Of a DNA stretch of 47,068 nt, positions 10,723-32,198 are shown piece after piece. Made by a program: the position numbers and the translations under genes. Source of the DNA: a virus. Numbering within the stretch: the stretch's first letter is position 1; each line of letters opens with the position of its first letter. Below the pieces are notes generated by a model, which saw only the letters and a program-made list of their open reading frames with translations, made no database searches and had not been told where the DNA came from. The stretch is taken from the IMG/VR virus record IMGVR_UViG_3300047408_000023, positions 1 to 47,068 of that record. The stretch is one strand, 5' to 3'.

Positions 10723-12105
10723 TTAACCCCACAATCCAGCCATGCCGGAACTTCCCATGCCACCTATACTTTTAGTAGCTTTACCTATTCCACCTAGAGC
10801 GCCAATTCCTGTCATTGCACCAGCAGCCGAACCTACTAGGCCACCGATAGTAGATGCCCAATCTCTCTGTGGATTGTTAGCCATTCTAGCTTGCGATACA
10901 TCCACAGTCTGACCAGTATTCTGGCCCATCATCTGACGCTGTGCAGTATCGTAGTATCCAACTTCAGCAGGACTAGATGTATAGAGATTACCAAGTCCGC
11001 CAAGACCTGCAAGTCTATTATCTGTCTGGAAGTTTGCAAGCCACTTCTCATTAGCTGCATTGTTAGCTGCATTAGCAGAGGCAGCAGATGCAGCGGCTCT
11101 CTGAGCAGCAGCTTCTTTATCTGCAATTCCCTCAAGACCTTGTGTGCCAAACATCTTTCCACGCTGCACAAGTTCTTGACCACCAATATCAGCACCACTA
11201 AGACCAGTAGCTGCACTAGTTCTATTCTGTGCAATGGAGTTGAGCATATTAGCTTCCATGCTCCCTGCACCCTGTAGACCTGCGAGTTTATTAGAACTCA
11301 TCAAGCCTTGTATATTCTGCTCATTACTAGATACGCCCTGAGCACCGGCTAATCTACCTGACCTAATAGAATCCTGCAAGCTAGCTTCTGCGTCTGTAGC
11401 AGCACGATTAGTATCGTAAGCAGAACTACGCGCCATCTGTGCAATGGCGGCAGGATTATAGTTTCCGGTAATCCCAGACATACGATTAGCAGTATCCATC
11501 GCAGTCTGATACTGTGCAGGGATACCTGCCGTAGCTCTCTGGCGATATGCAGTTTGCTGTGCATCATCGTATCCGCCAGTCTTAGCAAACTCATCATAGA
11601 CGCCATTACCGCGCATTCTAGCTATAGCTTCGTCAGTCAGGCCACCAGTCTTACCTATATCCTTAAGACCAGCGATGTTAGAATCCATCGAAGCTATTCT
11701 AGATGGGTCCCATCCACCGCTACTAGCAAGACCATGCAACTGACTCATTGCATAGTTATTCTCTGCTAGGTTAACGCCACCGCCACCCATGAAATTCTTA
11801 TAGGCGGCTGAGACATCTCCATATCCACCGGCCCCATAATTAGGTGCTGCTGCTCCACCGCCACCACCACCGCCACCAGTGCCACCACCTCTAAGAGAAG
11901 CAAGTAATTCTGGGCTTACGCCACCATTCTTAGCAATATCTGAATAGCCACCATACATGGTGCTATACATATCATTAGCATTAGAGCGAGCGGTCGCACG
12001 TTCAGGTGCAGTCCTAGATAAATAATCCGTAGTATAGTTTGCTTGCTGACCCTGAGCTTGATTCAGCATAGCATTGGTTTTATTTTTCTCAGTCCCCTTT
12101 GCCAT
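10723..12105 (-). CDS. Gly/Ala/Asn-rich virion protein (putative internal protein)
   Basis: 460-aa ORF with a poly-Gly tract GGGTGGGGGGGG and a G-rich C-terminus. Confidence 0.5.
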   Translation of the reverse strand: MAKGTEKNKTNAMLNQAQGQQANYTTDYLSRTAPERATARSNANDMYSTMYGGYSDIAKNGGVSPELLASLRGGGTGGGGGGGGAAAPNYGAGGYGDVSAAYKNFMGGGGVNLAENNYAMSQLHGLASSGGWDPSRIASMDSNIAGLKDIGKTGGLTDEAIARMRGNGVYDEFAKTGGYDDAQQTAYRQRATAGIPAQYQTAMDTANRMSGITGNYNPAAIAQMARSSAYDTNRAATDAEASLQDSIRSGRLAGAQGVSSNEQNIQGLMSSNKLAGLQGAGSMEANMLNSIAQNRTSAATGLSGADIGGQELVQRGKMFGTQGLEGIADKEAAAQRAAASAASANAANNAANEKWLANFQTDNRLAGLGGLGNLYTSSPAEVGYYDTAQRQMMGQNTGQTVDVSQARMANNPQRDWASTIGGLVGSAAGAMTGIGALGGIGKATKSIGGMGSSGMAGLWG

Positions 12106-12114
12106 GATTAACTC

Positions 12115-12516
12115 CTACGTCCGTATTCTGGACCTGAAATTTCCAAATCCAGTAGGAGGACCGCTAGGAGCGTTAGGATTCTGAGGCAAAGCCATAGGAG
12201 GACGCATCATAGGCTGGTCAGGCATAGGTCTACGAATAGCAGTAGGAGCCTCAGCAGGATTCTGACCTGTCTGAGCAAGTCTCTGAGCCATGAAGTTGTT
12301 ACCACCGGGCGGCTGCATAGTAGTCGGACCCGGAGGCTGTAGAGCATTTATAGTAGGAGCACCACCCATTCCCGGTATGGTTCTCTGTGCATTCTGCAAA
12401 GCCTGCATAGGATTCATACTAGGCTGAGGTAGACCACTCTGTTGCATAGCCTGTAAAGGATGCTGCATTGACTTTATAGGATGTTGCAGTAAATTTGCTC
12501 CTGGAATTTTAGCCAT
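12115..12516 (-). CDS. Pro/Met/Gln-rich small protein
   Basis: 133-aa low-complexity ORF; 8-nt overlap with the upstream gene. Confidence 0.5.
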   Translation of the reverse strand: MAKIPGANLLQHPIKSMQHPLQAMQQSGLPQPSMNPMQALQNAQRTIPGMGGAPTINALQPPGPTTMQPPGGNNFMAQRLAQTGQNPAEAPTAIRRPMPDQPMMRPPMALPQNPNAPSGPPTGFGNFRSRIRT

Positions 12517-12892
12517 TTGTCTTTACCATCAAACACTGACCCACCGTATCGTTATAACCAAAATGCTTCTTGAGGATTTTAGCGAAGTTTTCGTCCCTCA
12601 CAAAAGCATGAGCCTGCTCTATATTCTTATTTGAGCAGCCTATTTGTTGTGCTTCTAGTAGTAACGTGATTGTTTCTATCTTGTCTCTAATGCTTTGCGA
12701 ATGGTCTATTACAAAGAGTCCTTCGGCAAAGAGTTTAACAATCCCGAATCCTCTAATTCCTTCTCCACTATCAACGACACCGGAGATGACGGTGTTGCTA
12801 GTATTCGGGAGGCCAAACTGCTCTGAATAATGTTGTCTCCAAATCCTGTCAATTTCTGCAAGGTCTGCATTCCTATTGTAGCGGAACTCCAT
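12509..12892 (-). CDS. GNAT-like acetyltransferase (tentative)
   Basis: 127-aa ORF. ATG is preceded by AAGGTG. The C-terminal ..AHAFVRDENFAKILKKHFGY.. resembles the GNAT motif A/B region. The first 184 nt overlap the upstream ORF. Confidence 0.35.
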   Translation of the reverse strand: MEFRYNRNADLAEIDRIWRQHYSEQFGLPNTSNTVISGVVDSGEGIRGFGIVKLFAEGLFVIDHSQSIRDKIETITLLLEAQQIGCSNKNIEQAHAFVRDENFAKILKKHFGYNDTVGQCLMVKTNG

Positions 12893-14160
12893 GTATACAC
12901 CTTTCTAGTAGTATAGTTATAGCAGACCACCATTCCGTCTAGCTTGTCTATGAGATGATAGTTCTCTTGGAATCTCTGTTCAGCTACAAGAATATAGTCC
13001 TTCTTCACCATGTCATACTGGAATATATTCTTACACTCTATTGATATTCCACTACCATTCAGTAGCTTCTCAGCACGCTGACATTTATCAATAGAAACTT
13101 CCACGCCGGACAGTGAATAGGTAGGGAATCTACGGCGCAGGATTTGAAGTAGCCTGCCATTCCCACATCCCAAATCTACTAGTGAACGCTTCTCAGATGG
13201 GTTCATGAACTGTTCAATTTCTTTCATGAGCCAAGCATGAGCCTCACGCTCATCCTTCTCTGATTGAAATCCATTATCATCAGGTGGAAATTCAAGTGAT
13301 TTGTGGAAACTTACAGTCTCAGTCAGCTTCACTCTCTGCTCATTAGCAAATGGAAATGCTAGACCTGAACCTGAGTGAACTGGTATGAAAGCACCAGGCT
13401 TCTGGAACTTGTATTCAAATGGAGTAGCATCAGTCTTAGTAACTATCTTGAAGATTGGTGTTCTAATCTCAGCATAGCCATGAAGTGCTGACCATTCCAT
13501 TGGCATATCACAGAGTTTGTGAATAGTCTGTGAAATCTTAGCCATTCCATGCTGAAGCATCAGTGCTTGTATTCTCTGTGCCATCTCTCGTGTAGCATCA
13601 CAGTAGAATCCACATGGAAGATGAAATACTGGTCTAACCCCTAGACATCTCAGCATGACATTGCATAGAGGATGGAACTCTCCCTTAGAATTCTCATACT
13701 GAGGCCATGTCAGGTCGAAATAGTGCTGCTGATTCCACCAATAATCGAAATTACTCACACAGCACACAGGATATCCGAGTCGGGACTCAGCCTGATGCTG
13801 ATTATCCTCGAAATACTCAGGTTCTCTATGTATTGCTACACGATATTGGAATTTATTGGTAATTTCTGCTACATGCCTAGATGAATACATGCCAGTATCA
13901 GCCATCTTACCAAGCATGGTCATGTATAGCTTGCTATCTATCACTCTCCTAGAGAATTCTAGAATATTGTTTGGTGGTATAGATAATATTGCAGCTTCTC
14001 TCAGACCATCAGCAACAGATAGGAACTCTACTTCCTGCCAAGACACACTAATCTGATTTATGAGTGGTTCCCAATAATCTCTTGCAGCCTTAGACACCCA
14101 GATTGTGCTAGTTGTATCTGGGATATTCTGCGTAGCATCAGGCAATCTAGTTAGCGGCAT
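12709..14160 (-). CDS. Cys-rich N-terminal domain fused to a class-I SAM-dependent methyltransferase
   Basis: MTase motif I LVDLGCGNGRLLQIL, then GVEVS and DYILVAE. The N-terminal ~300 aa carry YPVCCVSNF and CNVMLRC...LPCGFYC. 14-nt overlap with the rSAM gene. Confidence 0.6.
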   Translation of the reverse strand: MPLTRLPDATQNIPDTTSTIWVSKAARDYWEPLINQISVSWQEVEFLSVADGLREAAILSIPPNNILEFSRRVIDSKLYMTMLGKMADTGMYSSRHVAEITNKFQYRVAIHREPEYFEDNQHQAESRLGYPVCCVSNFDYWWNQQHYFDLTWPQYENSKGEFHPLCNVMLRCLGVRPVFHLPCGFYCDATREMAQRIQALMLQHGMAKISQTIHKLCDMPMEWSALHGYAEIRTPIFKIVTKTDATPFEYKFQKPGAFIPVHSGSGLAFPFANEQRVKLTETVSFHKSLEFPPDDNGFQSEKDEREAHAWLMKEIEQFMNPSEKRSLVDLGCGNGRLLQILRRRFPTYSLSGVEVSIDKCQRAEKLLNGSGISIECKNIFQYDMVKKDYILVAEQRFQENYHLIDKLDGMVVCYNYTTRKVYTWSSATIGMQTLQKLTGFGDNIIQSSLASRILATPSSPVSLIVEKELEDSGLLNSLPKDSL

Positions 14161-15268
14161 TTCTAACCTCTACTTGTATGCTCTTGAAATCATAATGGTC
14201 TAGATGTGGAGTATCATTATGCTGATTCGTTGCTAATGCACGAGGATTGTATCCTATCTTATCCTCATAATACTTGAACAGACGCATCAGTAGTCCACAG
14301 TGTCGAGTTTTATTTCTCCAGTCGTCAGATTCTCCTGGACATTCACCTCGACAAACTGGGAAATACCTACAATCCTGACAGCCCCCGTATTCTTGGGGTG
14401 TATTGATAAGTGCATGGTGGCGTTCATTCCAGTCGGTGTCAGACTTAAGCCAATTGATACCGTCTTTATTTGTCCGGCCACAGTTTGAAAGGGTTCCATC
14501 GGGATTGATTCCATGGACCGCCTCAGTTCTGAGCGGATTGCATCCACCCCAAATACAAGTAGGCGAGAAATCTTCACCCTTCATCATACGTGGAATGTCA
14601 GAGAAGATATCTATGTTAATCTTATGGTCTAGTTCGGCAAGCTCTGTGATTGCCTTGAATGATTCATTCTCAGATAGAGCCACACGCTCTACAAGTTTAT
14701 GGTCTACTTCTAATAGATGCAATCTAGCACTTGTCAATCCCATGCCAGACAACATTACAAACCATTTCTTGAGAGTCTCTAGCTTCTCACCAACTGCATT
14801 CTTTTTGTGAAGTGTAACAATCAGAGATACACTCAACTTCCCGGCGCGGAGCATATTAGTCATATTAGTATGACTTCTCTCCGTCATTGTCCGTGTCTTA
14901 GTTAATGAGCCAGCCCACCGTAAATCATTTAATTCTTCCGGGCCGTCCATTGAGAATCCGACATGGACATTATACTTCTCGAATAACTCTATGTGCTTAG
15001 GAGTTATCAGACTACCGTTGGTCTGTATCCCATTCTGCTTGTATTTCTCGAAACCGTATTTGAACAGTTTCTCAAGAATATCAATTGGAGTAACTAGAGC
15101 CTCGCCACCGAATATAGTAAACGATTGGTTAGCATTATCCAATGCCTCAATCATCTTATCTACATTCATAATTGTAGCGAAGTTGCCAGCATCTCTCATA
15201 GGATTCTGATAGCAATAGCTACAGGATAGATTGCACTTGATTCCGCTAGGTAGAATTTCAACAGACAT
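14147..15268 (-). CDS. radical SAM enzyme with C-terminal SPASM-type auxiliary Fe-S domain
   Basis: CNLSCSYC (Cx3Cx2C) at residues 12-19. GGE motif FGGEAL. C-terminal Cys clusters CIWGGC...NCG...GGCQDCRYFPVCRGECPGE. Confidence 0.85.
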   Translation of the reverse strand: MSVEILPSGIKCNLSCSYCYQNPMRDAGNFATIMNVDKMIEALDNANQSFTIFGGEALVTPIDILEKLFKYGFEKYKQNGIQTNGSLITPKHIELFEKYNVHVGFSMDGPEELNDLRWAGSLTKTRTMTERSHTNMTNMLRAGKLSVSLIVTLHKKNAVGEKLETLKKWFVMLSGMGLTSARLHLLEVDHKLVERVALSENESFKAITELAELDHKINIDIFSDIPRMMKGEDFSPTCIWGGCNPLRTEAVHGINPDGTLSNCGRTNKDGINWLKSDTDWNERHHALINTPQEYGGCQDCRYFPVCRGECPGESDDWRNKTRHCGLLMRLFKYYEDKIGYNPRALATNQHNDTPHLDHYDFKSIQVEVRNAAN

Positions 15269-16188
15269 TAGGGACCTACATAGGTCGGGAAGTCGATGTG
15301 TGCAATATCATTATGCCCATCATCGTGAGCTACATCTAGATGTGCAGAATCACCATGAGCAGAATCTGTGTGAGCTACATCAGAATGTGAATCACTATGA
15401 GCAGTATCAATGTGAGCTTTATCCTGATGTGCTACGTCTGAGTGTGCATCAGTATGTGCTCTGTCACCATGCCCTACGTTTTCAAACGGTGTATCTCCAT
15501 GTGCTGTATCAACATGCGCTGAGTCACTATGTGGAGTAACATCATTATGCGCTCTATCACTATGCGGAGGAGGTGGTAAAGTTCCAGTATCCCAATGACC
15601 TAAAGAATCACTATGGTCTGTATGAACTCCAGGTGCATTATCTATATGTGGAACATCATAAAATGGTGTATCACCATGAGAATCACCGTGGTCAACTTGG
15701 TCTGTATGGTCACGATGCGGATAATCAATGTGAGTCACATCTGTATGCGTATCAGTATGACTATCTCCATGTGCAGTATCCGCGTGCGCTCCATCTACGT
15801 GCGAGTCAGTATGGGTATCATTATGTGCTAGGTCTGTATGAGCAGAATCAGAATGAATTGTATCTGAATGCCCATCAGCATGGGTAGTATCAGAATGTCC
15901 CTCTACCTCTACTCCGGCAGTTGCTTCTATCCAGTGAATCCTAGATATGACAGCCCACAAACTACCAACTATAGCACCTGACGGAGTTTTTATAACTACA
16001 TAGGGAATTATCCTATTAGTTCCAAATGCATCTATGTAATGAACATATTGATTTTCAACCCATAGACTACCAGGTATAGCTCCAGCCGGAGTATTTACTG
16101 GGTCGCCTACATAGTAGTATTCTTCATTGGCTTGGTCTACAAAATGCAAGCCAGTTCCATCTACCCAGATTGATGGTAGCTTAGCCAC
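15268..16188 (-). CDS. fibre-like protein: three N-terminal SxW...H(F/Y/W)(V/I)(D/E) repeats plus a C-terminal His-Xaa-Asp repeat domain
   Basis: GTG start immediately after, and in frame with, the stop of 16189..16650. About 39 HxD triplets in residues 98-306. The stop overlaps the rSAM start (TAATG). Confidence 0.7.
   Translation of the reverse strand: MAKLPSIWVDGTGLHFVDQANEEYYYVGDPVNTPAGAIPGSLWVENQYVHYIDAFGTNRIIPYVVIKTPSGAIVGSLWAVISRIHWIEATAGVEVEGHSDTTHADGHSDTIHSDSAHTDLAHNDTHTDSHVDGAHADTAHGDSHTDTHTDVTHIDYPHRDHTDQVDHGDSHGDTPFYDVPHIDNAPGVHTDHSDSLGHWDTGTLPPPPHSDRAHNDVTPHSDSAHVDTAHGDTPFENVGHGDRAHTDAHSDVAHQDKAHIDTAHSDSHSDVAHTDSAHGDSAHLDVAHDDGHNDIAHIDFPTYVGP
15271..15897 (-). repeat. coding tandem repeat: ~39 HxD units with mostly 4-5 residue period
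   Basis: HSDTTHADGHSDTIHSDSAHTDLAHNDTHTDSHVDGAHADTAHGDSHTDTHTDVTHID...AHTDSAHGDSAHLDVAHDDGHNDIAHID. Confidence 0.9.
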
Positions 16189-16650
16189 TTATGTAGCCCA
16201 CTTATTTGCGCCTACGGGAATGACTAGAGCATTTCTAACATAGATTACATTGGGTCGGACTGCTGCACTTCCTATGTTTCTGGTCCCATCTGTATCAAAT
16301 GTTATATGACCAGACACTTGGAGACTTGAGATACCAGTGATAGTTCCACCAGTAATAGCAACAGCTACAGCATTCTGGGTAGCCATAGTGCCTAGCCCAA
16401 GACCTGCTATAGCTCCAGAAACAGAGGAAGCTCCAGTTCCACCACCAGCAACAGATATTATTTTATCAACCCAAGCAGTGCCATTCCATTCCTGGAATTT
16501 ATTATTAGCCCTATCATATCTGATAGAGCCAACAGGTTGATTAGATGGCACATTTAGGAACAGAGTTGCACCATCAACATCCTTGAAGTTTAGGCTATCA
16601 AGGACATCTGTATACAAATCTGTTATTGTTGGTTTTCCCCAATCTGCCAT
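16189..16650 (-). CDS. tail fibre N-terminal-type protein
   Basis: 153 aa. GGTGA..GLGLGTMATQNA..ITGGTITG motif is typical of phage fibre proteins. Lies in the fibre gene block. Confidence 0.6.
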   Translation of the reverse strand: MADWGKPTITDLYTDVLDSLNFKDVDGATLFLNVPSNQPVGSIRYDRANNKFQEWNGTAWVDKIISVAGGGTGASSVSGAIAGLGLGTMATQNAVAVAITGGTITGISSLQVSGHITFDTDGTRNIGSAAVRPNVIYVRNALVIPVGANKWAT

Positions 16651-17130: not shown

Positions 17131-18354
17131 CTATCTCCCTTCAAGAGCAACTATTCGCTGCTCATGGTCTTTCAATAAATCTAGGAATGATGCTAGAAAG
17201 GCGTGTTCACGAATTGAAGCTGGAGTCGTTTTATCTTCTTCATAGTTGACCAAATGTCGCAATCCAGCAGCGTCCAATTCCTCTGCGGAGAATCCCAAGT
17301 AGTCTCCGAATTTCTTTTCGGTATCCTCTTTAGCTGTATATAGAATGGGAGATATACTCAACAATGCTGCACGTTGTGGATTCGTCCAGCCACGTCGAAT
17401 ATCTTCCTTGAATCGTTCACTGGAACTTATTCTTCTAATATAGCCATCTGCTGCAAGAGTAATGGAGACTGACGCCGCAGCCGAACCAATACCGTTCGCG
17501 TAGATAAGTCCACTAGGAACAATATTCGTGCAGGAAATCGCGGCGCTGCACGTAACCCCCGCACATGTAAGACCTAATCCAAGATATAAGCCAGTGTTGG
17601 AGTATAATCCATAGCTGCCATGACTAGCGAGATACCAACTTCCCTGACTACCAGTAGCATCTATACGACCCGGATACATAACACCAGTATTCTGTATGTA
17701 TCCAGCACAAGTAAGGTTGCCAGCACTAATAGAAATTCCACCACCAAAGTTCGTTGCACCTGTTATAGTCAAATCTGCTAGGACATTACCACTCCCTATT
17801 GAGCTGAAGTTTAATGCTTTGAGAGAAGCCCAATTGGAAGCATCTGCAAGAACACATTCTGCTACAGCACCAGTATTTCTCCATGCTGGAAATGCAGCCG
17901 TAGCTCCACCAATCTTAATTGATGGCTGACCATTTGGGCCACCCACAATAGCAGCAGAACAATTAAGTCCACCAGCTGTGGAAATAGTGGCTACGTTAAC
18001 AATAGTCCCACCGGGTGGAGAGTAGTAGAAATACCATCCACCAGCAGCAGACTGGTGAAGCATTGTTCCACATTGTGATGGGTCATCTTGAACCCAACTA
18101 GCACCAGCATTTGGAGTAGATAAATTCTTAAGAAATGAGGCTGTATTTGCAACTGACTGAAGATGTGTTTTTCCAGCAGACCCATCAGTCAGAATTAAAT
18201 GTGCCCCACCAGTAGTAGGTAATACTCCCGGAGATACAGTCCCTTCATTAAGAATGGAGGCATTCAAAGGCAATGGGATATAAGATACCCCATCGTTTGT
18301 CGAGTATTCAAATATATGCGTTGTTTCATTCCAACGCATCCATTTAGTTGCCAT
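17131..18354 (-). CDS. tail fibre with C-terminal intramolecular-chaperone (peptidase S74-like) autoprocessing domain
   Basis: N-terminus is paralogous to 18357..19553. The C-terminus ISSSERFKEDI...GFSAEELD...LLKDHEQRIVALE matches the endosialidase-chaperone pattern. Confidence 0.7.
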   Translation of the reverse strand: MATKWMRWNETTHIFEYSTNDGVSYIPLPLNASILNEGTVSPGVLPTTGGAHLILTDGSAGKTHLQSVANTASFLKNLSTPNAGASWVQDDPSQCGTMLHQSAAGGWYFYYSPPGGTIVNVATISTAGGLNCSAAIVGGPNGQPSIKIGGATAAFPAWRNTGAVAECVLADASNWASLKALNFSSIGSGNVLADLTITGATNFGGGISISAGNLTCAGYIQNTGVMYPGRIDATGSQGSWYLASHGSYGLYSNTGLYLGLGLTCAGVTCSAAISCTNIVPSGLIYANGIGSAAASVSITLAADGYIRRISSSERFKEDIRRGWTNPQRAALLSISPILYTAKEDTEKKFGDYLGFSAEELDAAGLRHLVNYEEDKTTPASIREHAFLASFLDLLKDHEQRIVALEGR

Positions 18355-18356
18355 TA

Positions 18357-19553
18357 TTAACCACTACAAAGAGGACGCCAAGCTACATCATATAGCAGCA
18401 CTATGCCACCACCTGGAGCTATAGTGCTAGTAGCCATTGAGAGATTTCCACCAGCAGCCAGAGTAAAGCCTACAGCACTATTATTCCAGAGAAATATAAC
18501 TCGACCTGCGGTAGCTCCATTTATCGTTTGAATACTCTGACCACCGGCTGAAGGCGTAATGCTAACAATACTAACACCAGCTGGGATAGTTATAGTTGCA
18601 TTGATTTGAGCAATATTTAGACGTGCAATTCCTGTTATCTCAAATGAGGCAGTTTGAGTAACACCACTGTTTGCGATTCCACCAGTTGTGAGTCCATTAC
18701 CTTGTTGGTTGATACCAGTGCAGACAATAGCTCCACAATTAACTGGACCAAATGTAACAGTATTGTTATTAGAGTTAATAGTTGAACAGCTTAGTGCATT
18801 CATTGCTACGTTACCATTCAACGTAGATGCACCACCTACCCATAGATTTGAGTTAACATTTAGTGTGCTGTTTATGGTTACGCCACCACCAGCAGCAATT
18901 GTCATTCTAGAGGCATTAGAAGTTCTAAACTCTATAGGTGCAGCAGCACCTGAGTTAAGTAATATTCCACCTGCACCAGCAGAATAAAGAGCCAACCCAT
19001 CTGGAATAAATGCAGCATTACTTTGTGTAGTGCTAGTAAAGATTACATAGCCTCTAGCATCGCTAGCATTATTCTGGAATACCATACCAGAAAATGCACC
19101 AACACCACCACTAGTGTTAATCAAGTGGAGATAGTTACCACCATCTACAGAGGCAGAGAAATTATGGACGCCTGTTCCTACAACGCTATGAGTTACATTT
19201 CCATTTCTATCTAGAGACATTAAATTAGCCGTAGCAACACCGGCATCATTTAATATTCTACCAAGGTATAGGGCAGAACCCTCTGCCATTATCTCCCAAT
19301 TCTTAAGGTTAGCACCTACATCTGTTTCATTAAATCTAATTGATGGTGCAAGTCCAGAATAGGTGCTAATTCCAAGCCAAGTATTAGGACCAGATAGGGA
19401 TGCGCCACTACCACCGGGAATAGCACTAGGCGGCAATACTCCCTCTGAAATGATATTCGCACTCAGAGGAAGAAAAGTCCATGTAGTTCCATTGTTAGTG
19501 GAATACTCAAAGATGTGAGTAGTTTGATTCCATCTTATCCACTGGACTGCCAT
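18357..19553 (-). CDS. tail fibre / receptor-binding protein (second paralogue)
   Basis: N-terminus MAVQWIRWNQTTHIFEYSTNNG versus MATKWMRWNETTHIFEYSTNDG in the neighbouring gene. G/S/N/T-rich beta-type C-terminus. Confidence 0.65.
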   Translation of the reverse strand: MAVQWIRWNQTTHIFEYSTNNGTTWTFLPLSANIISEGVLPPSAIPGGSGASLSGPNTWLGISTYSGLAPSIRFNETDVGANLKNWEIMAEGSALYLGRILNDAGVATANLMSLDRNGNVTHSVVGTGVHNFSASVDGGNYLHLINTSGGVGAFSGMVFQNNASDARGYVIFTSTTQSNAAFIPDGLALYSAGAGGILLNSGAAAPIEFRTSNASRMTIAAGGGVTINSTLNVNSNLWVGGASTLNGNVAMNALSCSTINSNNNTVTFGPVNCGAIVCTGINQQGNGLTTGGIANSGVTQTASFEITGIARLNIAQINATITIPAGVSIVSITPSAGGQSIQTINGATAGRVIFLWNNSAVGFTLAAGGNLSMATSTIAPGGGIVLLYDVAWRPLCSG

Positions 19554-21049
19554 TAAACTATTCCTCTAGCTTTCCATGATACGGCGGCTGTAGTTCTTAC
19601 GCCAATGGAATTAAATACATATACCTTAAAGCCTGTAGGATTTGGGACATCCTGGAAATCATAGATAATAGTCAGTGGCTCAATAGCCTTAGTTCCAGTA
19701 ACTGTAATGGAATCTATATCTTTGAATGGCTTATTGAATAGAACCTGAGTTCCATTCGCATCTGTAGCTAGTGCAGTGACACCACCAGAATCGAGTTCAC
19801 GTTTCACATCTACTGAATAGGTTAGATTATAGAATAGAGCTAGAGCCTTATCATTATTGGATGTGAAGTCTATAGTAGCTCGGACATATCGGAACTGCTG
19901 CAAGAATACAGATTTGGCATGAACTATAGGAGTCCAAGTAACTTGGTCTAATGAACCCTCTACACCAGGCGTAGCAGTTACTGTAGGAACTATCTGGTCT
20001 ATCGTATAGTTCATATTGAATATGGTTGCAAACAGCGTAGTTCCATAATCAATAATCTCCTGATACTTACCACTGAGTAGTGTCGGCTGGATGTATATAG
20101 GATAGAAGTTATCTAGCTGGTCTTTAATCTTATTCCAACCCTGAGATGTAAAGTGGGTAGTCCAAGTCTTAGTTCCATCTATACATACAAGTATCTTACC
20201 TGTATTGTTTCCAATCCATGTCCAGTTCTGAGCAGAGATTAGACCAGCATCCCATCCATTAAACTCATCATTTACCCAACCAACTTCAGGACTACCATAG
20301 GGTAGAGCATTTACCTTCAGACCTGATAGGATGCTCTTTCTATAGTCAAGTAACTCAAAATCTGGAGGCTGTGCTACAACTAAGCTAACAGATGATGACG
20401 GCCCGATATTTCCAGCCATATCTGTAGGAAACACAGAATATGTATATGTGCCACCAGCAGATTCAAATACGGCTATGAAAGTTCCATGCTGTGTCCCTAC
20501 TATGACTCCACCCCTACTGATAGTGTAGTAATCAATATCCCATGTAGAGACAGGCTCAGACCAGCTTAGCAATACGTTGTTATCAATTACTCGACCATTG
20601 ATAGTTATAGCTCCAATGGGAGGAATCACAACATCGACGTATGCAAATCCAGACGAGGGAACTCCGGCGCCGTTAATTGACTTGAGAAGATATCTGGTAG
20701 TGCCAACTATGATTGGGTCAAGTCTTGCTTCTGTGATACCTGTGATAGTTATCTGTGATGCAGTATCCCAGTTAGTTCCTCTGCGAACTTCATATGTCCT
20801 AGCATTCGCAGCAGAATTCCATGTAAGGATTAGATTTCTACCAGTAGTTGAGTATGCAAATCCTGTGGGAGTATCAGGGATTGGCTCAGTTACAATCGTA
20901 GTAACTCTATCAATGATAGGGAATACTTTAGTTTGCAGGTCATCTACACTGTTTACTAACCCATTCAGAATATCATACAGGCGTGGGTCTACTTGCTGAT
21001 ATCCCTGTATCAGAGTAGTGATGTCAGATACACGAATGACATCAGTCAT
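19553..21049 (-). CDS. tail protein with fibronectin-III-like repeats
   Basis: PTGFAYSTTGRNLILTWNSAANARTYEVRRG and LLSWSEPVSTWDIDYYTISRG are FN3-like segments. ATGA-type coupling to neighbours. Confidence 0.55.
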   Translation of the reverse strand: MTDVIRVSDITTLIQGYQQVDPRLYDILNGLVNSVDDLQTKVFPIIDRVTTIVTEPIPDTPTGFAYSTTGRNLILTWNSAANARTYEVRRGTNWDTASQITITGITEARLDPIIVGTTRYLLKSINGAGVPSSGFAYVDVVIPPIGAITINGRVIDNNVLLSWSEPVSTWDIDYYTISRGGVIVGTQHGTFIAVFESAGGTYTYSVFPTDMAGNIGPSSSVSLVVAQPPDFELLDYRKSILSGLKVNALPYGSPEVGWVNDEFNGWDAGLISAQNWTWIGNNTGKILVCIDGTKTWTTHFTSQGWNKIKDQLDNFYPIYIQPTLLSGKYQEIIDYGTTLFATIFNMNYTIDQIVPTVTATPGVEGSLDQVTWTPIVHAKSVFLQQFRYVRATIDFTSNNDKALALFYNLTYSVDVKRELDSGGVTALATDANGTQVLFNKPFKDIDSITVTGTKAIEPLTIIYDFQDVPNPTGFKVYVFNSIGVRTTAAVSWKARGIV

Positions 21050-30265: not shown

Positions 30266-30628
30266 TTATTGAACCGGAGCTTGTTCTTTCACCTGAACTT
30301 TATGCTTTAGTTCTAACTCACGCCGGATGTCTTTGAAGTTACGGCGCGGAGCAATTGGCTGCATAACTTCTGTAGTCTGTCCAGATTCCACAGGATTATC
30401 AGTGAGCTTAGCCACAAGACTCCTGTTAACTTCATCCAGAGTCTTGATGTGGGTCTTAAGATAAGTCTCGTATTCCTCATGAACTGCACACGTAGGACAG
30501 TTATTGATGACGGAGCCTTGGTCTGAATTGCTTGAATAATCGTCCGACGCGAGTATTCTTCTGTTTGTCAAGATATTCCAAGCGTCTATGAAACGCTGTC
30601 TGATTCCCTGTCTGTTGTAGTTCGTCAT
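30266..30628 (-). CDS. hypothetical protein with CPTC motif
   Basis: 120-aa ORF. Its first 128 nt overlap the 3' end of terL, and there is no alternative start downstream of the terL stop. Confidence 0.4.
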   Translation of the reverse strand: MTNYNRQGIRQRFIDAWNILTNRRILASDDYSSNSDQGSVINNCPTCAVHEEYETYLKTHIKTLDEVNRSLVAKLTDNPVESGQTTEVMQPIAPRRNFKDIRRELELKHKVQVKEQAPVQ

Positions 30629-32198
30629 AGATTTGGGACTCTTTCTTCAGAGCGATATCCATAGCCTCAGTAGATTCACGCCACTTATCTATTCCCTTTA
30701 GTAAATAGCGCAGGTCATCATAGAAGTCATCGCCAAGCTCAGTATCTGTAGCGTCCCACTTCTTTACATCTTCAGCGGACTTTCCGATTTTATCCTCGAC
30801 ATATACACACATCGGGATTGTATTGATTAGATATTGACAGGTGCTGAATATCTGTAGCTTAGGCAGAACCTCTGGTTTCTTAGGAACAAACCTAGACAGA
30901 TAATCATCATACAACTTAATATTGCCAGTCCTAAGAATCCTAGCGGCGAGTTCAGAATCATATTCTTCCTTCGCCGGAGGCTCAGGCAATGGCTCAAGTC
31001 TAAGATATTCGTGAATCAGCAACTTACCTGAGAGTCTCTCATTATCAGCAGCCGTTGGAACAAACTCTACATGACCTTCAAGAGTCTCAGTCTTAGCATA
31101 TTCCATGAACTCTTGAGCAACTGTATTGGTTCCACGGTTCTGCCATGCACTGCCGTCTAGTTTAGGACCAATAGCTAATTGCTCGCTTCCTGTGAGAATT
31201 GCGAAATTCTTGGCCCAGAGTGATGTGGTCTCTTGTCGAGACATGTATTCTCTGTATATATAAACTCGACCATCTGGAGATAACGCACCCCATAGAATAG
31301 CCGTAGGATGGTTATAGCCCCAATCAATCGCAGCAAATCTAGGCCACCACTTAGGAATCTCGAACGGTTCACAGACATGGCTTCTTTGTAGAGTGTCATT
31401 AGGTAGAGGTGCTCGAAGAAACTCCTCAAATACCTGACCCTTGAATGCGTCCCAGTCTCCAAGAACCTTAGCTTTATATTCCGCTTCGGGGAGGTCTTTA
31501 AGACTGTTAGCGTAATCTTCCTTATTCTGGATGTGGATATTGTCAATGAGCGATGATGGAATGAATATTCGTCGCTCATTTGTCTTATGGTCTAGAATCA
31601 GTTTATATCCGAACCGCGCCGGGTCTATGAATCTACGCTTGACCCATGAGTGTCCAATATTGCCAGGATTGCTAGCAGACCTCATTATTGTTGGAAGGTC
31701 CGGCGCTGATGTTCGCAGTCTCGACTTCATGTAAGTGTATACCCACTCACTGAAGTGTGTCAGCTCATCAAACGCTATATAATTGAATTCTGCTGTATCA
31801 TGTTCTCTTGCATCGTCTTCATTCGCTAGATATGATAGACGTATAGTTGCTCCGTCCAGCTTAGGATTCTCAGGATGTGGAAAGGTAAAGACATGATTAG
31901 TCGCATTATACCTAGCGCCAAGCGGTATATAATAATCCTTGCCCCTAGGGATAAGAGATTCTTCAAGTTGTGGGAATGTCTTACGAAAGATGATTGCATG
32001 GAATCTAGGATTATGAATCCATCCCCTCACAACTGGAAGCATCATCAAGATGTCAGACTTACCACCACCTAACTGACCACCAAAGAATGCTTCACGAACA
32101 GAATCAGGAATCTTGAGGAAGTCTTCCTGGGTTTTGAATGGACGCCAATATTTTATTAGCTGACCATCATCCAGTCGGACTTCCTCAAGATATGCCAT
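30501..32198 (-). CDS. terL: terminase large subunit
   Basis: Walker A GGQLGGGKSD, Walker B YIAFDELTHF, nuclease-domain AAIDWGYNHP. Confidence 0.85.
   Translation of the reverse strand: MAYLEEVRLDDGQLIKYWRPFKTQEDFLKIPDSVREAFFGGQLGGGKSDILMMLPVVRGWIHNPRFHAIIFRKTFPQLEESLIPRGKDYYIPLGARYNATNHVFTFPHPENPKLDGATIRLSYLANEDDAREHDTAEFNYIAFDELTHFSEWVYTYMKSRLRTSAPDLPTIMRSASNPGNIGHSWVKRRFIDPARFGYKLILDHKTNERRIFIPSSLIDNIHIQNKEDYANSLKDLPEAEYKAKVLGDWDAFKGQVFEEFLRAPLPNDTLQRSHVCEPFEIPKWWPRFAAIDWGYNHPTAILWGALSPDGRVYIYREYMSRQETTSLWAKNFAILTGSEQLAIGPKLDGSAWQNRGTNTVAQEFMEYAKTETLEGHVEFVPTAADNERLSGKLLIHEYLRLEPLPEPPAKEEYDSELAARILRTGNIKLYDDYLSRFVPKKPEVLPKLQIFSTCQYLINTIPMCVYVEDKIGKSAEDVKKWDATDTELGDDFYDDLRYLLKGIDKWRESTEAMDIALKKESQIYDELQQTGNQTAFHRRLEYLDKQKNTRVGRLFKQFRPRLRHQ

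Follow-up and report, generated by a model that had tools for sequence, protein, structure and literature searches.

The window analysed here, 47,068 nucleotides of viral DNA (IMG/VR virus record IMGVR_UViG_3300047408_000023, positions 1 to 47,068), covers a phage genome either completely or in large part. Within its virion (late structural) operon, and surrounded by tail genes, lies a minus-strand cassette of four coupled genes that encode a protein with 39 His-x-Asp (HxD) motifs, a radical S-adenosylmethionine (SAM) enzyme of the SPASM type (hereafter rSAM enzyme), a DUF483-like domain fused to a methyltransferase, and a protein of 127 amino acids. We consider it probable (roughly 70%) that this cassette serves the rSAM-dependent maturation of a protein, with the HxD array as its target; in this phage the array would be the distal segment of a tail fibre. 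A first-pass annotation of the DNA had already regarded the repeat protein as a likely substrate of the enzyme encoded next to it. That interpretation gains support from the presence of an HxD-rich open reading frame (ORF) at 76 of 93 loci with an rSAM enzyme of this family and from HxD tails borne by the enzymes themselves.

The HxD array and its linkage to an rSAM enzyme

The HxD protein (306 amino acids; 15268..16188, minus strand) consists of N-terminal repeats, the His-x-Asp array, and a conserved C-terminus. Direct reading of residues 1–97 (15898..16188) reveals three repeats of ~35 amino acids with the signature GSxWVEG..xHYID, which is kept in phage, bacterial, and archaeal homologues. 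Residues 98–306 (15268..15897, stop codon included) hold the array and the C-terminal end and represent the putative substrate. The first-pass annotation had put the number of motifs at about 39; we counted 39 at residues 98–297, compared with 7.8 ± 2.2 (maximum 16) in 5000 composition-preserving shuffles of residues 98–306. All 39 His residues in that region belong to an HxD motif, and successive motifs are mostly spaced 5 or 4 residues apart. The array contains no Cys and has a net charge of approximately -36; the protein as a whole has a net charge of approximately -42 and lacks a signal peptide. Its C-terminal end, HIDFPTYVGP, conforms to a D.P..[IV]G[P] ending that is conserved across homologues. 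The protein has no match in Pfam, NCBIfam, or PHROG. Tandem repeats at the DNA level are limited to three, all short and weak, which indicates that the array is not a recent DNA expansion.

Composition statistics for the family were compiled from 20,231 array residues in 120 proteins. His is followed by Asp at position +2 in 92.5% of cases (Asn, 2.9%; Ser, 0.3%), 84% of Asp residues have His at position -2, and only His and Asp at positions i and i+2 are conserved. Cys and Lys account for 0.2% and 0.5% of array residues, respectively. A broader aromatic-x-Asp motif, an idea derived from a Tyr-rich Limnochordales protein, was rejected because Tyr, Phe, and Trp occur at position -2 of Asp at background frequency across the family. 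Array length varies strongly between phages. Some viral contigs encode very large HxD proteins (529–1025 amino acids, 67–93 motifs; L129:2922-5996, L145:3974-5953, L146:3569-5953, and L099:4402-5988), and two to four HxD-rich ORFs are found at loci such as L110, L112, and L136. In the N-terminal part of the window's protein (15898-16188), residues 31–82 show a weak match to designed Pizza six-bladed β-propellers in the Protein Data Bank (PDB; E 3e-5 to 1e-4); three blade-like repeats per chain could generate a propeller assembly upon oligomerization.

Viral and genome collections were scanned with an alignment of the rSAM enzyme, and each locus was scored by local hidden Markov models. ORFs with at least 8 HxD motifs were designated HxD-rich, and the neighbourhood was searched within 6 kb. 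Among the 93 loci with an rSAM enzyme of this family, 87 contain a DUF483-like gene and 76 contain an HxD-rich ORF, which lies immediately upstream on the same strand in 48. The corresponding figures for loci with other rSAM enzymes recovered in the same scan are 1/74 and 1/74, and the one outgroup locus that scored positive is apparently a fragmented family member. At least three further family loci encode short HxD peptides that fall below the size and count threshold. The first-pass annotation had named occurrence of the enzyme in related phages without an HxD partner as an outcome that would refute its interpretation; by these counts, the family practically never lacks such a partner.

This linkage was observed in the podovirus-like lineage of the window, the Thermus myophages phiMa and Cumys, the jumbo phage phiLo, and a Limnochordales prophage, as well as in loci from Acidobacteriota, Armatimonadota, haloarchaea, and nanohaloarchaea. 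The gene order in phiMa and Cumys is tail collar fibre, hypothetical protein, HxD protein, rSAM enzyme, and DUF483 protein; their HxD protein is 343 amino acids in length and combines 53 HxD motifs with N-terminal repeats like those of the window's protein. Like arrangements are found in a different 48-kb viral contig, which encodes a 454-amino acid protein with 57 HxD motifs, and in the Limnochordales prophage, which is of the myovirus type and carries the methyltransferase as a separate gene. After the separate methyltransferase, the Limnochordales cassette also encodes a second, shorter GYPRCC protein of 201 amino acids (L006:10674-11279) that may be a DUF483-like paralogue (27 bits to a local profile). 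phiLo was initially taken as an exception without an HxD partner on the strength of a tblastn miss; this was discarded, as the opposite strand carries, 4.4 kb downstream, an ORF of at least 408 amino acids that contains 72 HxD motifs. In phiLo (L003:4815-5944 and 11810-13033), the usual place of the HxD gene directly upstream of the rSAM gene is taken by split IS605 OrfB transposase genes, which suggests that the phiLo cassette has been rearranged. Two archaeal loci, L043 (a Nanohaloarchaea metagenome-assembled genome, MAG) and L044 (Halorubellus litoreus), contain GSxWVEG repeats, HxD or HxN/YxD arrays, an rSAM enzyme, and a DUF483-like gene. Because these loci hold its parts, the system crosses domains, probably through viruses.

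The HxD motif also occurs in proteins other than the large phage repeat proteins. The C-terminal tail of the window's own rSAM enzyme carries three HxD motifs (H350-N-D, H355-L-D, and H358-Y-D in QHNDTPHLDHYD; 14189..14221, minus strand). At least two such motifs follow the SPASM domain in 60 of the 120 best rSAM homologues, with some containing 10–24, and one protein that joins a DUF483 domain to a methyltransferase (P0135) ends in an HxD tail. These enzyme-borne tails could be tethers, pseudo-substrates, or cis-substrates. Fusions of the rSAM enzyme to DUF483 occur in Bryobacterales and other bacteria, where an ORF of 70–88 amino acids composed almost entirely of HxD motifs lies directly upstream (Bryobacterales examples are L027:5761-5970, L028:5686-5949, and L029:5710-5949). 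The Bryobacterales arrangement looks like a compact bacterial version of the system, resembling those for peptides that are made by the ribosome and modified after translation (RiPPs). HxD peptides with a signal-like N-terminus, such as RRTLIAAGWTVPVVLAVG, are encoded in contigs of Armatimonadota, Solirubrobacteraceae, Ardenticatenaceae, and Acidobacteriaceae, and their N-termini suggest that bacterial HxD products are exported. Small HxD peptides with N-termini of this kind (for example, RRTLIAAGWTVPVVLAVG or RRSFLSRMTAAALALVG) were found at L021:8216-9019, L039:8250-8543, L019:8772-9203, and L034:5109-5690(-); at L021 the small HxD peptide is present in two tandem copies.

A Microcystaceae contig contains a PqqD-like gene, a member of the RiPP recognition element family, near its rSAM/DUF483 pair. 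At this locus (L018:3909-10028, from a Microcystaceae MAG), the rSAM gene and a gene for a DUF483-methyltransferase fusion are flanked by the PqqD-like protein, a KilA-N protein, and an NTP_transf_5 nucleotidyltransferase, and no HxD ORF occurs within 6 kb; a different or distant substrate is possible for this pair.

The rSAM enzyme and the DUF483-like fusion protein

The rSAM enzyme (373 amino acids; 14147..15268, minus strand) belongs to the radical SAM superfamily, matching Pfam Radical_SAM (PF04055) with 52.1 bits (E 1.2e-13) against a cut-off of 29.5. The first-pass annotation had described a Cx3Cx2C motif, a GGE motif, and a Cys-rich SPASM C-terminus, all of which are borne out. The CX3CX2C motif for the SAM-binding [4Fe-4S] cluster (C12, C16, and C19; 15212..15235), read directly from the translation, is invariant in 40 homologues, and the GGE of an FGGE motif is likewise invariant. 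The SPASM region (14297..14557) comprises C238, C243-x14-G-x4-C263, C297-x2-C-x5-C-x3-C310, and C324; its eight Cys residues are all invariant in the 40 homologues, and the region predicts two auxiliary Fe-S clusters. The seven-Cys SPASM pattern (CX9-15GX4C ... CX2CX5CX3C ... C) is present in full at residues 243–263, 297–310, and 324. The Pfam SPASM model gave no match to the enzyme at E<=0.1, so the SPASM assignment rests on this motif and on NCBIfam alignments, of which those to PapB, DarE, and TIGR04083 reach residues 311–313.

The family is large (>1200 homologues), and the window's enzyme matches phrog_1802 with an E value of 2e-33. Its best match in the PDB is the anaerobic sulfatase maturase anSME (4K36). 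NCBIfam scores reached 69 bits for anSME, 68 for DynA, 66 for AmcB, and 59 for both TIGR04083 and PapB, followed by GrrM/OscB and YhhB (51 each), DarE (50), QhpD (49), HxsB (41), and XyeB (39). All are far below the respective thresholds: the anSME model TIGR03942 scored 69.2 bits against 349.45 and aligned only to residues 5–157; the triceptide synthase models scored 66.1 against 425 (AmcB), 50.8 against 310 (GrrM/OscB), 50.5 against 445 (YhhB), and 39.4 against 450 (XyeB); and HxsB and QhpD scored 40.8 against 370 and 49 against 453, respectively. HxsC was absent among the 25 best NCBIfam matches. The first-pass annotation had raised kinship with nucleoside or cofactor enzymes as an outcome that would count against maturation. 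The best NCBIfam and PDB matches are instead protein- or peptide-modifying SPASM enzymes, and the phage QueE-like PHROG matched with an E value of only 1.4e-3. Because the best curated matches are all maturases yet fall below cut-off, the rSAM family forms, by sequence, a branch of its own among the SPASM enzymes that modify proteins and peptides.

The next gene in the cassette (12709..14160, minus strand) encodes a fusion protein of 483 amino acids that had been annotated as a Cys-rich domain joined to a class-I methyltransferase. Both parts of that description hold, and alignments reveal that the N-terminal part (residues 1–275; 13336..14160) is a DUF483-like domain. Its conserved residues comprise a GYPxCC motif (C133 and C134), D149, H180, C183, C187, and H227; the four conserved Cys and two conserved His residues suggest a metal or Fe-S site, with the DUF483-like proteins of Thermus phages having His in place of one conserved Cys. 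Pfam DUF483 (PF04467; cut-off 25 bits) gave no match to the window's domain at E<=1. Scores below 25 bits were obtained for homologues in phiMa (16) and phiLo (20.4), and some metagenomic homologues have a precomputed PF04467 match. On these alignments, the domain is best called DUF483-like. A search with phmmer of 1.84 billion representatives yielded 1235 clusters at E<=1e-3. Most of the 150 best are 450–530 amino acids in length and, for that reason, are probably methyltransferase fusions as well.

AlphaFold2 modelled the DUF483-like domain with a predicted local distance difference test score (pLDDT) of 92.5 and a predicted template-modelling score (pTM) of 0.88. Comparison of this model with PDB and BFVD revealed no significant neighbour (best E 0.02 and 0.15; query-normalised TM score <=0.24). 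Attempts to assign a fold by other routes were set aside: the full-length model matched methyltransferases only, and a profile search of the PDB matched only the methyltransferase part. That part (residues ~296–430; 12871..13275, minus strand) has the Rossmann-type fold and GxGxG loop of class-I SAM-dependent methyltransferases, with an invariant DLGCGNG loop. It scored 27 bits to Methyltransf_25, exactly at the cut-off, with matches to further Pfam models, and Foldseek matched it to N-methyltransferases with a probability of 1.0. Its best sequence matches in the PDB are the RiPP N-methyltransferases BpumL and BamL (BpumL profile match, 1.3e-11). Across the family the methyltransferase is fused, separate, or missing, depending on the locus; because it is optional, we regard it as a tailoring step. 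The DUF483-like domain, the third universal component, matters more.

Probable fibre identity and the surrounding operon

The ORF immediately upstream of the HxD gene (153 amino acids; 16189..16650, minus strand) encodes a tail-fibre module, the proximal or adaptor part, as indicated by weak PHROG tail-fibre matches and by comparison with neighbours of other HxD genes. Its C-terminus reads ...VIPVGANKWAT, and at 16 other loci the gene just upstream of the HxD gene encodes a protein ending in PVGxDKW/Y/F. A single polypeptide unites the fibre module (...PVGxDKY) with the HxD module in P0170, P0184, and several viral contigs; other members join the HxD module to a lectin domain (Laminin_G_3) or to an MG2 domain. 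These natural fusions to the fibre module and the Laminin_G_3 domain support the view, put forward in the first-pass annotation, that the HxD protein is a fibre component. Tail genes surround the HxD gene in every viral locus examined. The HxD protein also diverges faster than its neighbours: between the window and its closest relative, it is 65% identical, compared with 74.5% in the fibre ORF, 77% in the fusion protein, and 90% in the rSAM enzyme. Receptor-binding and host-contact parts of phages often evolve fastest. From these features we infer that the HxD protein of the window forms the distal part of the tail fibre, attached to or continuing the 153-amino acid module.

The wider setting agrees with the virion module assigned by the first-pass annotation. 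The large terminase gene TerL (30501..32198) heads a long minus-strand structural operon in which PHROG tail and host-specificity matches lie at 19553..21049 and 17131..18354 (together within 17131..21049), ahead of the 153-amino acid fibre ORF. DNA polymerase, primase, and helicase genes are located on the plus strand. Megablast found no nucleotide similarity of the window to known deposited phages; its close relatives are metagenomic viral contigs of 46–48 kb, with an rSAM enzyme that is 90% identical to the window's.

All five ORFs of the region were recovered on the minus strand at the coordinates annotated earlier, and their junctions are as described there. The HxD ORF ends in ...GGT CCC TAA TG..., the ATG of the rSAM gene using the last A of the stop codon; the rSAM and fusion genes overlap by 14 nucleotides (...AGA AAT GCC GCT AAC TAG); and the fusion gene overlaps the 127-amino acid ORF by 184 nucleotides (12709..12892). 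At the upstream border of the cassette, the TAA stop codon of the fibre ORF abuts the GTG start codon of the HxD ORF, a start that agrees with the N-termini of homologues (MAKxxGSxW). The two ORFs are in frame with this single TAA between them, and programmed stop-codon readthrough was therefore considered. It was rejected because the gap, taken modulo 3, is distributed 7, 7, and 2 among the 16 other loci with the same fibre C-terminus, which amounts to ordinary tight coupling.

The last gene of the cassette is the conserved 127-amino acid ORF (12509..12892, minus strand), an accessory gene whose product possibly has a GNAT fold. Its homologues, found in related viral contigs and restricted to the podovirus-like lineage, are 30–84% identical. 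Although the ORF is real and conserved, the GNAT-like label given to it earlier is not supported, as the window's protein matched no family significantly. Weak hints of a GNAT relationship came from two of 12 homologues (Acetyltransf_1, E 0.2) and a PDB acetyltransferase (E 1.5), and the Gly-rich acetyl-CoA loop (Q/RxxGxG/A) was not visible in the alignment of homologues. At 12709-12892 the last ~60 residues of the fusion protein share DNA with the first 61 codons of this ORF in another frame; much of this C-terminal extension was modelled by AlphaFold2 with low confidence. Both frames are conserved in P0122, P0124, and L098; L004 lacks the extension and has an overlap of only 34 nucleotides. 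Directly downstream of the cassette, 12115-12516 encodes a Pro/Gln/Met-rich, low-complexity protein of 133 amino acids (62% identity in L098), and 10723-12105 encodes a protein of 460 amino acids with a Gly run (GGGTGGGGGGGGAAAP) and a Gly/Ser/Ala-rich tail (86% identity in L098). Both of these unusual genes are thus conserved in relatives, and neither protein has a Pfam or PHROG match.

Proposed reaction, rival explanations, and known systems

In the model that we favor, the substrate would be the His-x-Asp array of the 306-amino acid protein (15268..16188). The rSAM enzyme would cleave SAM reductively to generate a 5'-deoxyadenosyl radical that abstracts a hydrogen atom at each HxD unit. The DUF483-like domain would act as an obligatory partner, either in presenting the substrate or in carrying out a second step of catalysis, its Cys/His site probably binding metal, and the fused class-I methyltransferase, possibly together with the product of the 127-amino acid ORF, would provide optional tailoring. 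Because conservation in the arrays is confined to His and Asp at i and i+2, the chemistry must act on one of these residues or on the backbone; the scarcity of Cys and Lys excludes thioether and Lys crosslinks. PapB and QhpD attack side-chain carbons of Asp or Glu. HtkB installs a crosslink between His C2 and Lys C-beta, and HaaB is a related cyclophane synthase for a His motif (PMC11499958). Our leading proposal, which we hold tentatively and at well under even odds, is a crosslink from the His imidazole to Asp C-beta: abstraction of hydrogen at Asp C-beta would be followed by bond formation with the imidazole two residues upstream, creating a three-residue macrocycle, like those formed by triceptide cyclophane synthases, at a cost of -2 Da per motif. 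The proposal extends both kinds of precedent, the His crosslinking of HtkB and HaaB and the attack on acidic side chains by PapB and QhpD. Up to 39 such crosslinks would convert an acidic, irregular repeat into a rigid segment that resists proteases and heat.

Several considerations weigh against this model. Although the genes, the motifs, their linkage throughout the family, and the enzyme-borne HxD motifs are established, the role of the array as substrate, the presence of the HxD protein in virions, and the entire chemistry are inferred, and homology cannot supply the reaction type, as the rSAM enzyme falls under every curated family cut-off. The His position shows no enrichment of Tyr, Phe, or Trp, in contrast to the aromatic interchangeability seen in some triceptide precursors, and the i/i+2 spacing of His and Asp would fit metal coordination on one face of a β-strand as well. 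Enzymes of the rSAM type require anaerobic or reducing conditions and a reductant. What the DUF483-like domain does is guesswork, since no solved structure matches its fold. Finally, approximately 14 of the 93 family loci lack an HxD ORF within 6 kb, some of them at contig ends.

The explanation closest to ours retains the array as substrate of the rSAM enzyme and changes the reaction, to C-alpha epimerization yielding D-residues, hydroxylation, a carbon insertion resembling the +8 Da (+C/-4H) change, or crosslinks between chains or repeats. We rate this only somewhat short of an even chance. The scores of the enzyme, far under all family cut-offs, leave the reaction class open; aromatic residues do not replace His in the arrays; and the sole characterised system with His-x-small-residue repeats shows +8 Da rather than -2 Da (PMC13128918). 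The methyltransferase fused to the partner protein in most members could supply the carbon, but it is missing in the Thermus phages and several other loci, so a methyl-derived carbon cannot be universal. Moreover, a two-residue reaction unit is the simplest explanation of the strict i/i+2 pairing of His with Asp. Alternatively, the array might be a metal-binding element of the fibre that undergoes no covalent modification, each layer of a trimer offering three His and three Asp residues per metal ion, with the rSAM enzyme and DUF483-like protein serving another purpose or merely aiding metal loading or folding. His-x-His iron sites are known in T4 gp37, at the tip of the long tail fibre, and in tail spikes of the P2 type. 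With i/i+2 spacing, His and Asp face one side of an extended strand, the array is acidic and rich in His, and the Cys/His site of the DUF483-like domain could bind metal. We nonetheless find this explanation improbable: it does not account for linkage to a SPASM enzyme and its partner at ~80–94% of loci from bacteria, archaea, and viruses, for bacterial HxD peptides that are 70–90 amino acids long or signal-bearing and have no fibre context, or for enzyme-borne HxD tails, and the irregular spacing of 3–6 residues is at odds with a regular metal ladder. An array that binds metal could, however, be covalently modified as well.

Two further explanations concern the purpose of the cassette. It could be cargo that mediates superinfection exclusion, defence, or counter-defence, with the matured HxD protein as effector, as in the HXS system, its closest functional analogue, in which an rSAM-matured repeat protein is antiphage (PMC13128918). 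The Limnochordales prophage carries its cassette between tail-fibre genes and lysis/integrase genes, a common position for cargo, and some bacterial HxD peptides have N-termini resembling export signals. We give this explanation little credence in view of the embedding of the window's genes in a structural operon, their tight coupling to a fibre gene, and the occurrence of HxD modules in single chains with fibre and lectin domains. The phage HxD protein lacks a signal peptide and is strongly acidic (~ -42), unlike the basic, DNA-binding HxsA, and defence models of PADLOC match the cassette only generically (viperin-like rSAM, methyltransferase).

The other possibility, proposed for the "rSAM module" of Cumys and phiMa, is that the rSAM enzyme and DUF483-like protein install a DNA or nucleoside modification and that the HxD gene is an unrelated neighbour. 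In some cyanobacterial genomes, homologues of the pair lie beside genes for deazapurine DNA modification (Kolesnik et al. 2024, PMC11437467). The one cyanobacterial contig that we examined has a PqqD-like gene and no dpd or que genes beside the pair; a tRNA_Me_trans-family gene with a weak QueC Pfam match lies nearby. The paper that proposed this function left the HxD repeats out of account (PMC11437467), and DNA chemistry explains neither the HxD linkage nor the enzyme-borne tails. The cassette always resides in fibre or baseplate modules and never in replication modules, and the best matches of the enzyme are peptide and protein maturases, with the QueE-like PHROG far behind. Enzyme-borne HxD tails, small HxD peptides, and the PqqD-like neighbour lead us to expect peptide or protein maturation rather than a DNA-modifying pair, and we regard a role in DNA modification as very unlikely.

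Should maturation of the array be correct, it would be a new kind of virion maturation; to our knowledge, no structural protein of a virion has been described that matures through a radical enzyme encoded by the phage. A fibre segment bearing as many as 39 modifications installed by an enzyme would be new and could explain stability in harsh settings, the system being found in Thermus and haloarchaeal viruses. Two protein families, the rSAM family (>1200 proteins) and the DUF483-like family (~1200 clusters), would gain a concrete functional hypothesis. With 20–90 identical sites, and a substrate sometimes fused to the enzyme, the system would lend itself to the study of new rSAM chemistry and to the engineering of crosslinked protein materials. 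A more far-reaching picture, speculative and rather doubtful in its full extent, is that fibres of phages, prophages, and archaeal viruses contain a segment covalently stapled at dozens of HxD units by a dedicated rSAM enzyme and a partner of new fold, and that the small secreted HxD peptides of bacteria derive from the same system. In that case the post-translational modification would be new, the fibre protein would be the first structural component of a virion known to mature by way of a radical enzyme, and the cassette would found a maturation system of ~10^3 sequence clusters.

The first-pass annotation had named the cassette its top candidate for an undescribed system, a claim that calls for qualification. 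Kolesnik et al. (Viruses 2024, PMC11437467) noted the gene trio in Thermus phages and suggested DNA modification, and an analogue of the cassette, HXS, was reported in 2026 (PMC13128918); the 2024 paper makes no mention of the HxD repeats. Apart from these two papers, literature searches revealed no phage rSAM-fibre system, HxD repeat, or rSAM-matured virion protein. The Cumys/phiMa module has the same trio in the same order as the window, and its rSAM enzyme is 47% identical to the window's; its upstream protein, described as unknown, is the HxD-repeat protein with 53 motifs, whereas the methyltransferase and the 127-amino acid ORF are absent from the Thermus versions. Reading the module as a maturation system would correct the published suggestion of DNA modification.

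SPASM enzymes that act on whole proteins rather than RiPP peptides include anSME and QhpD, and the enzyme described here would resemble them in this respect. QhpD crosslinks Asp or Glu side-chain carbons within a protein subunit. However, the target of oxidation by anSME is a single Cys or Ser within a C/SxPxR motif and QhpD needs Cys, whereas HxD arrays lack those motifs and have almost no Cys. The triceptide synthases (XyeB, GrrM/OscB, YhhB, AmcB, and the His-specific HaaB and HtkB) likewise pair a SPASM-type rSAM enzyme with a three-residue repeat motif, in which the first residue contributes its ring and the third its C-beta, and motifs containing His are known (PMC11499958). The His-x-Asp spacing agrees with this form of motif. 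Among the triceptide systems we found neither a described class of His-x-Asp motifs nor a partner of the DUF483-like kind. Triceptide substrates are short, leader-containing peptides with 1–3 or a few motifs, in contrast to the ~300-amino acid, putatively structural protein with 39 motifs considered here. Nor does the cassette correspond to a RiPP system in the strict sense: the candidate substrate is a phage protein of 306 amino acids with folded-looking N-terminal repeats, and the cassette includes no protease gene. The iron-binding needle of T4 gp37 is likewise a segment of a phage fibre built on short His motifs. It has few sites, of the HxH type, and no dedicated enzyme genes, compared with the dozens of HxD sites in the present system, and sequence similarity of the HxD protein to fibre tips of the T4 gp37 type was not detected.

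The closest parallel is HXS, an antiphage system composed of the His-Xaa-Ser repeat effector HxsA, the rSAM enzymes HxsB and HxsC, and HxsD (TIGR03976-03979; Li et al., Nat Commun 2026, PMC13128918). HxsB and HxsC mature HxsA, with a mass change of +8 Da (+C/-4H) (PMC13128918). In both systems, a full-length protein with His-x-small-residue repeats is encoded beside one or more SPASM-type rSAM enzymes and a small or uncharacterised partner, maturation depends on the rSAM enzyme, and the product acts at the phage-host interface (both being proposals in the case of HxD). The differences are considerable. HXS has five repeats that are basic and of the form HxS, whereas HxD arrays have 20–90 and are acidic; HXS employs two rSAM enzymes and HxsD, whereas the HxD system has one rSAM enzyme and a DUF483-like protein, with or without a methyltransferase; and HXS is a bacterial defence system found to 99.7% in Pseudomonadota, whereas the HxD system resides mostly in fibre modules of viruses and prophages and extends over many phyla and archaea. 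With no match to HxsA, a single rSAM gene, and Ser at only 0.3% of positions +2 of His, the cassette is not a member of HXS. Relative to the known maturation of repeat peptides and proteins by rSAM/SPASM enzymes, the motif, the fold of the partner, and the biological setting are new. Together, HxD and HXS point to a wider class of rSAM-matured His-x-small-residue repeat proteins that would operate on both sides of the phage-host interface.

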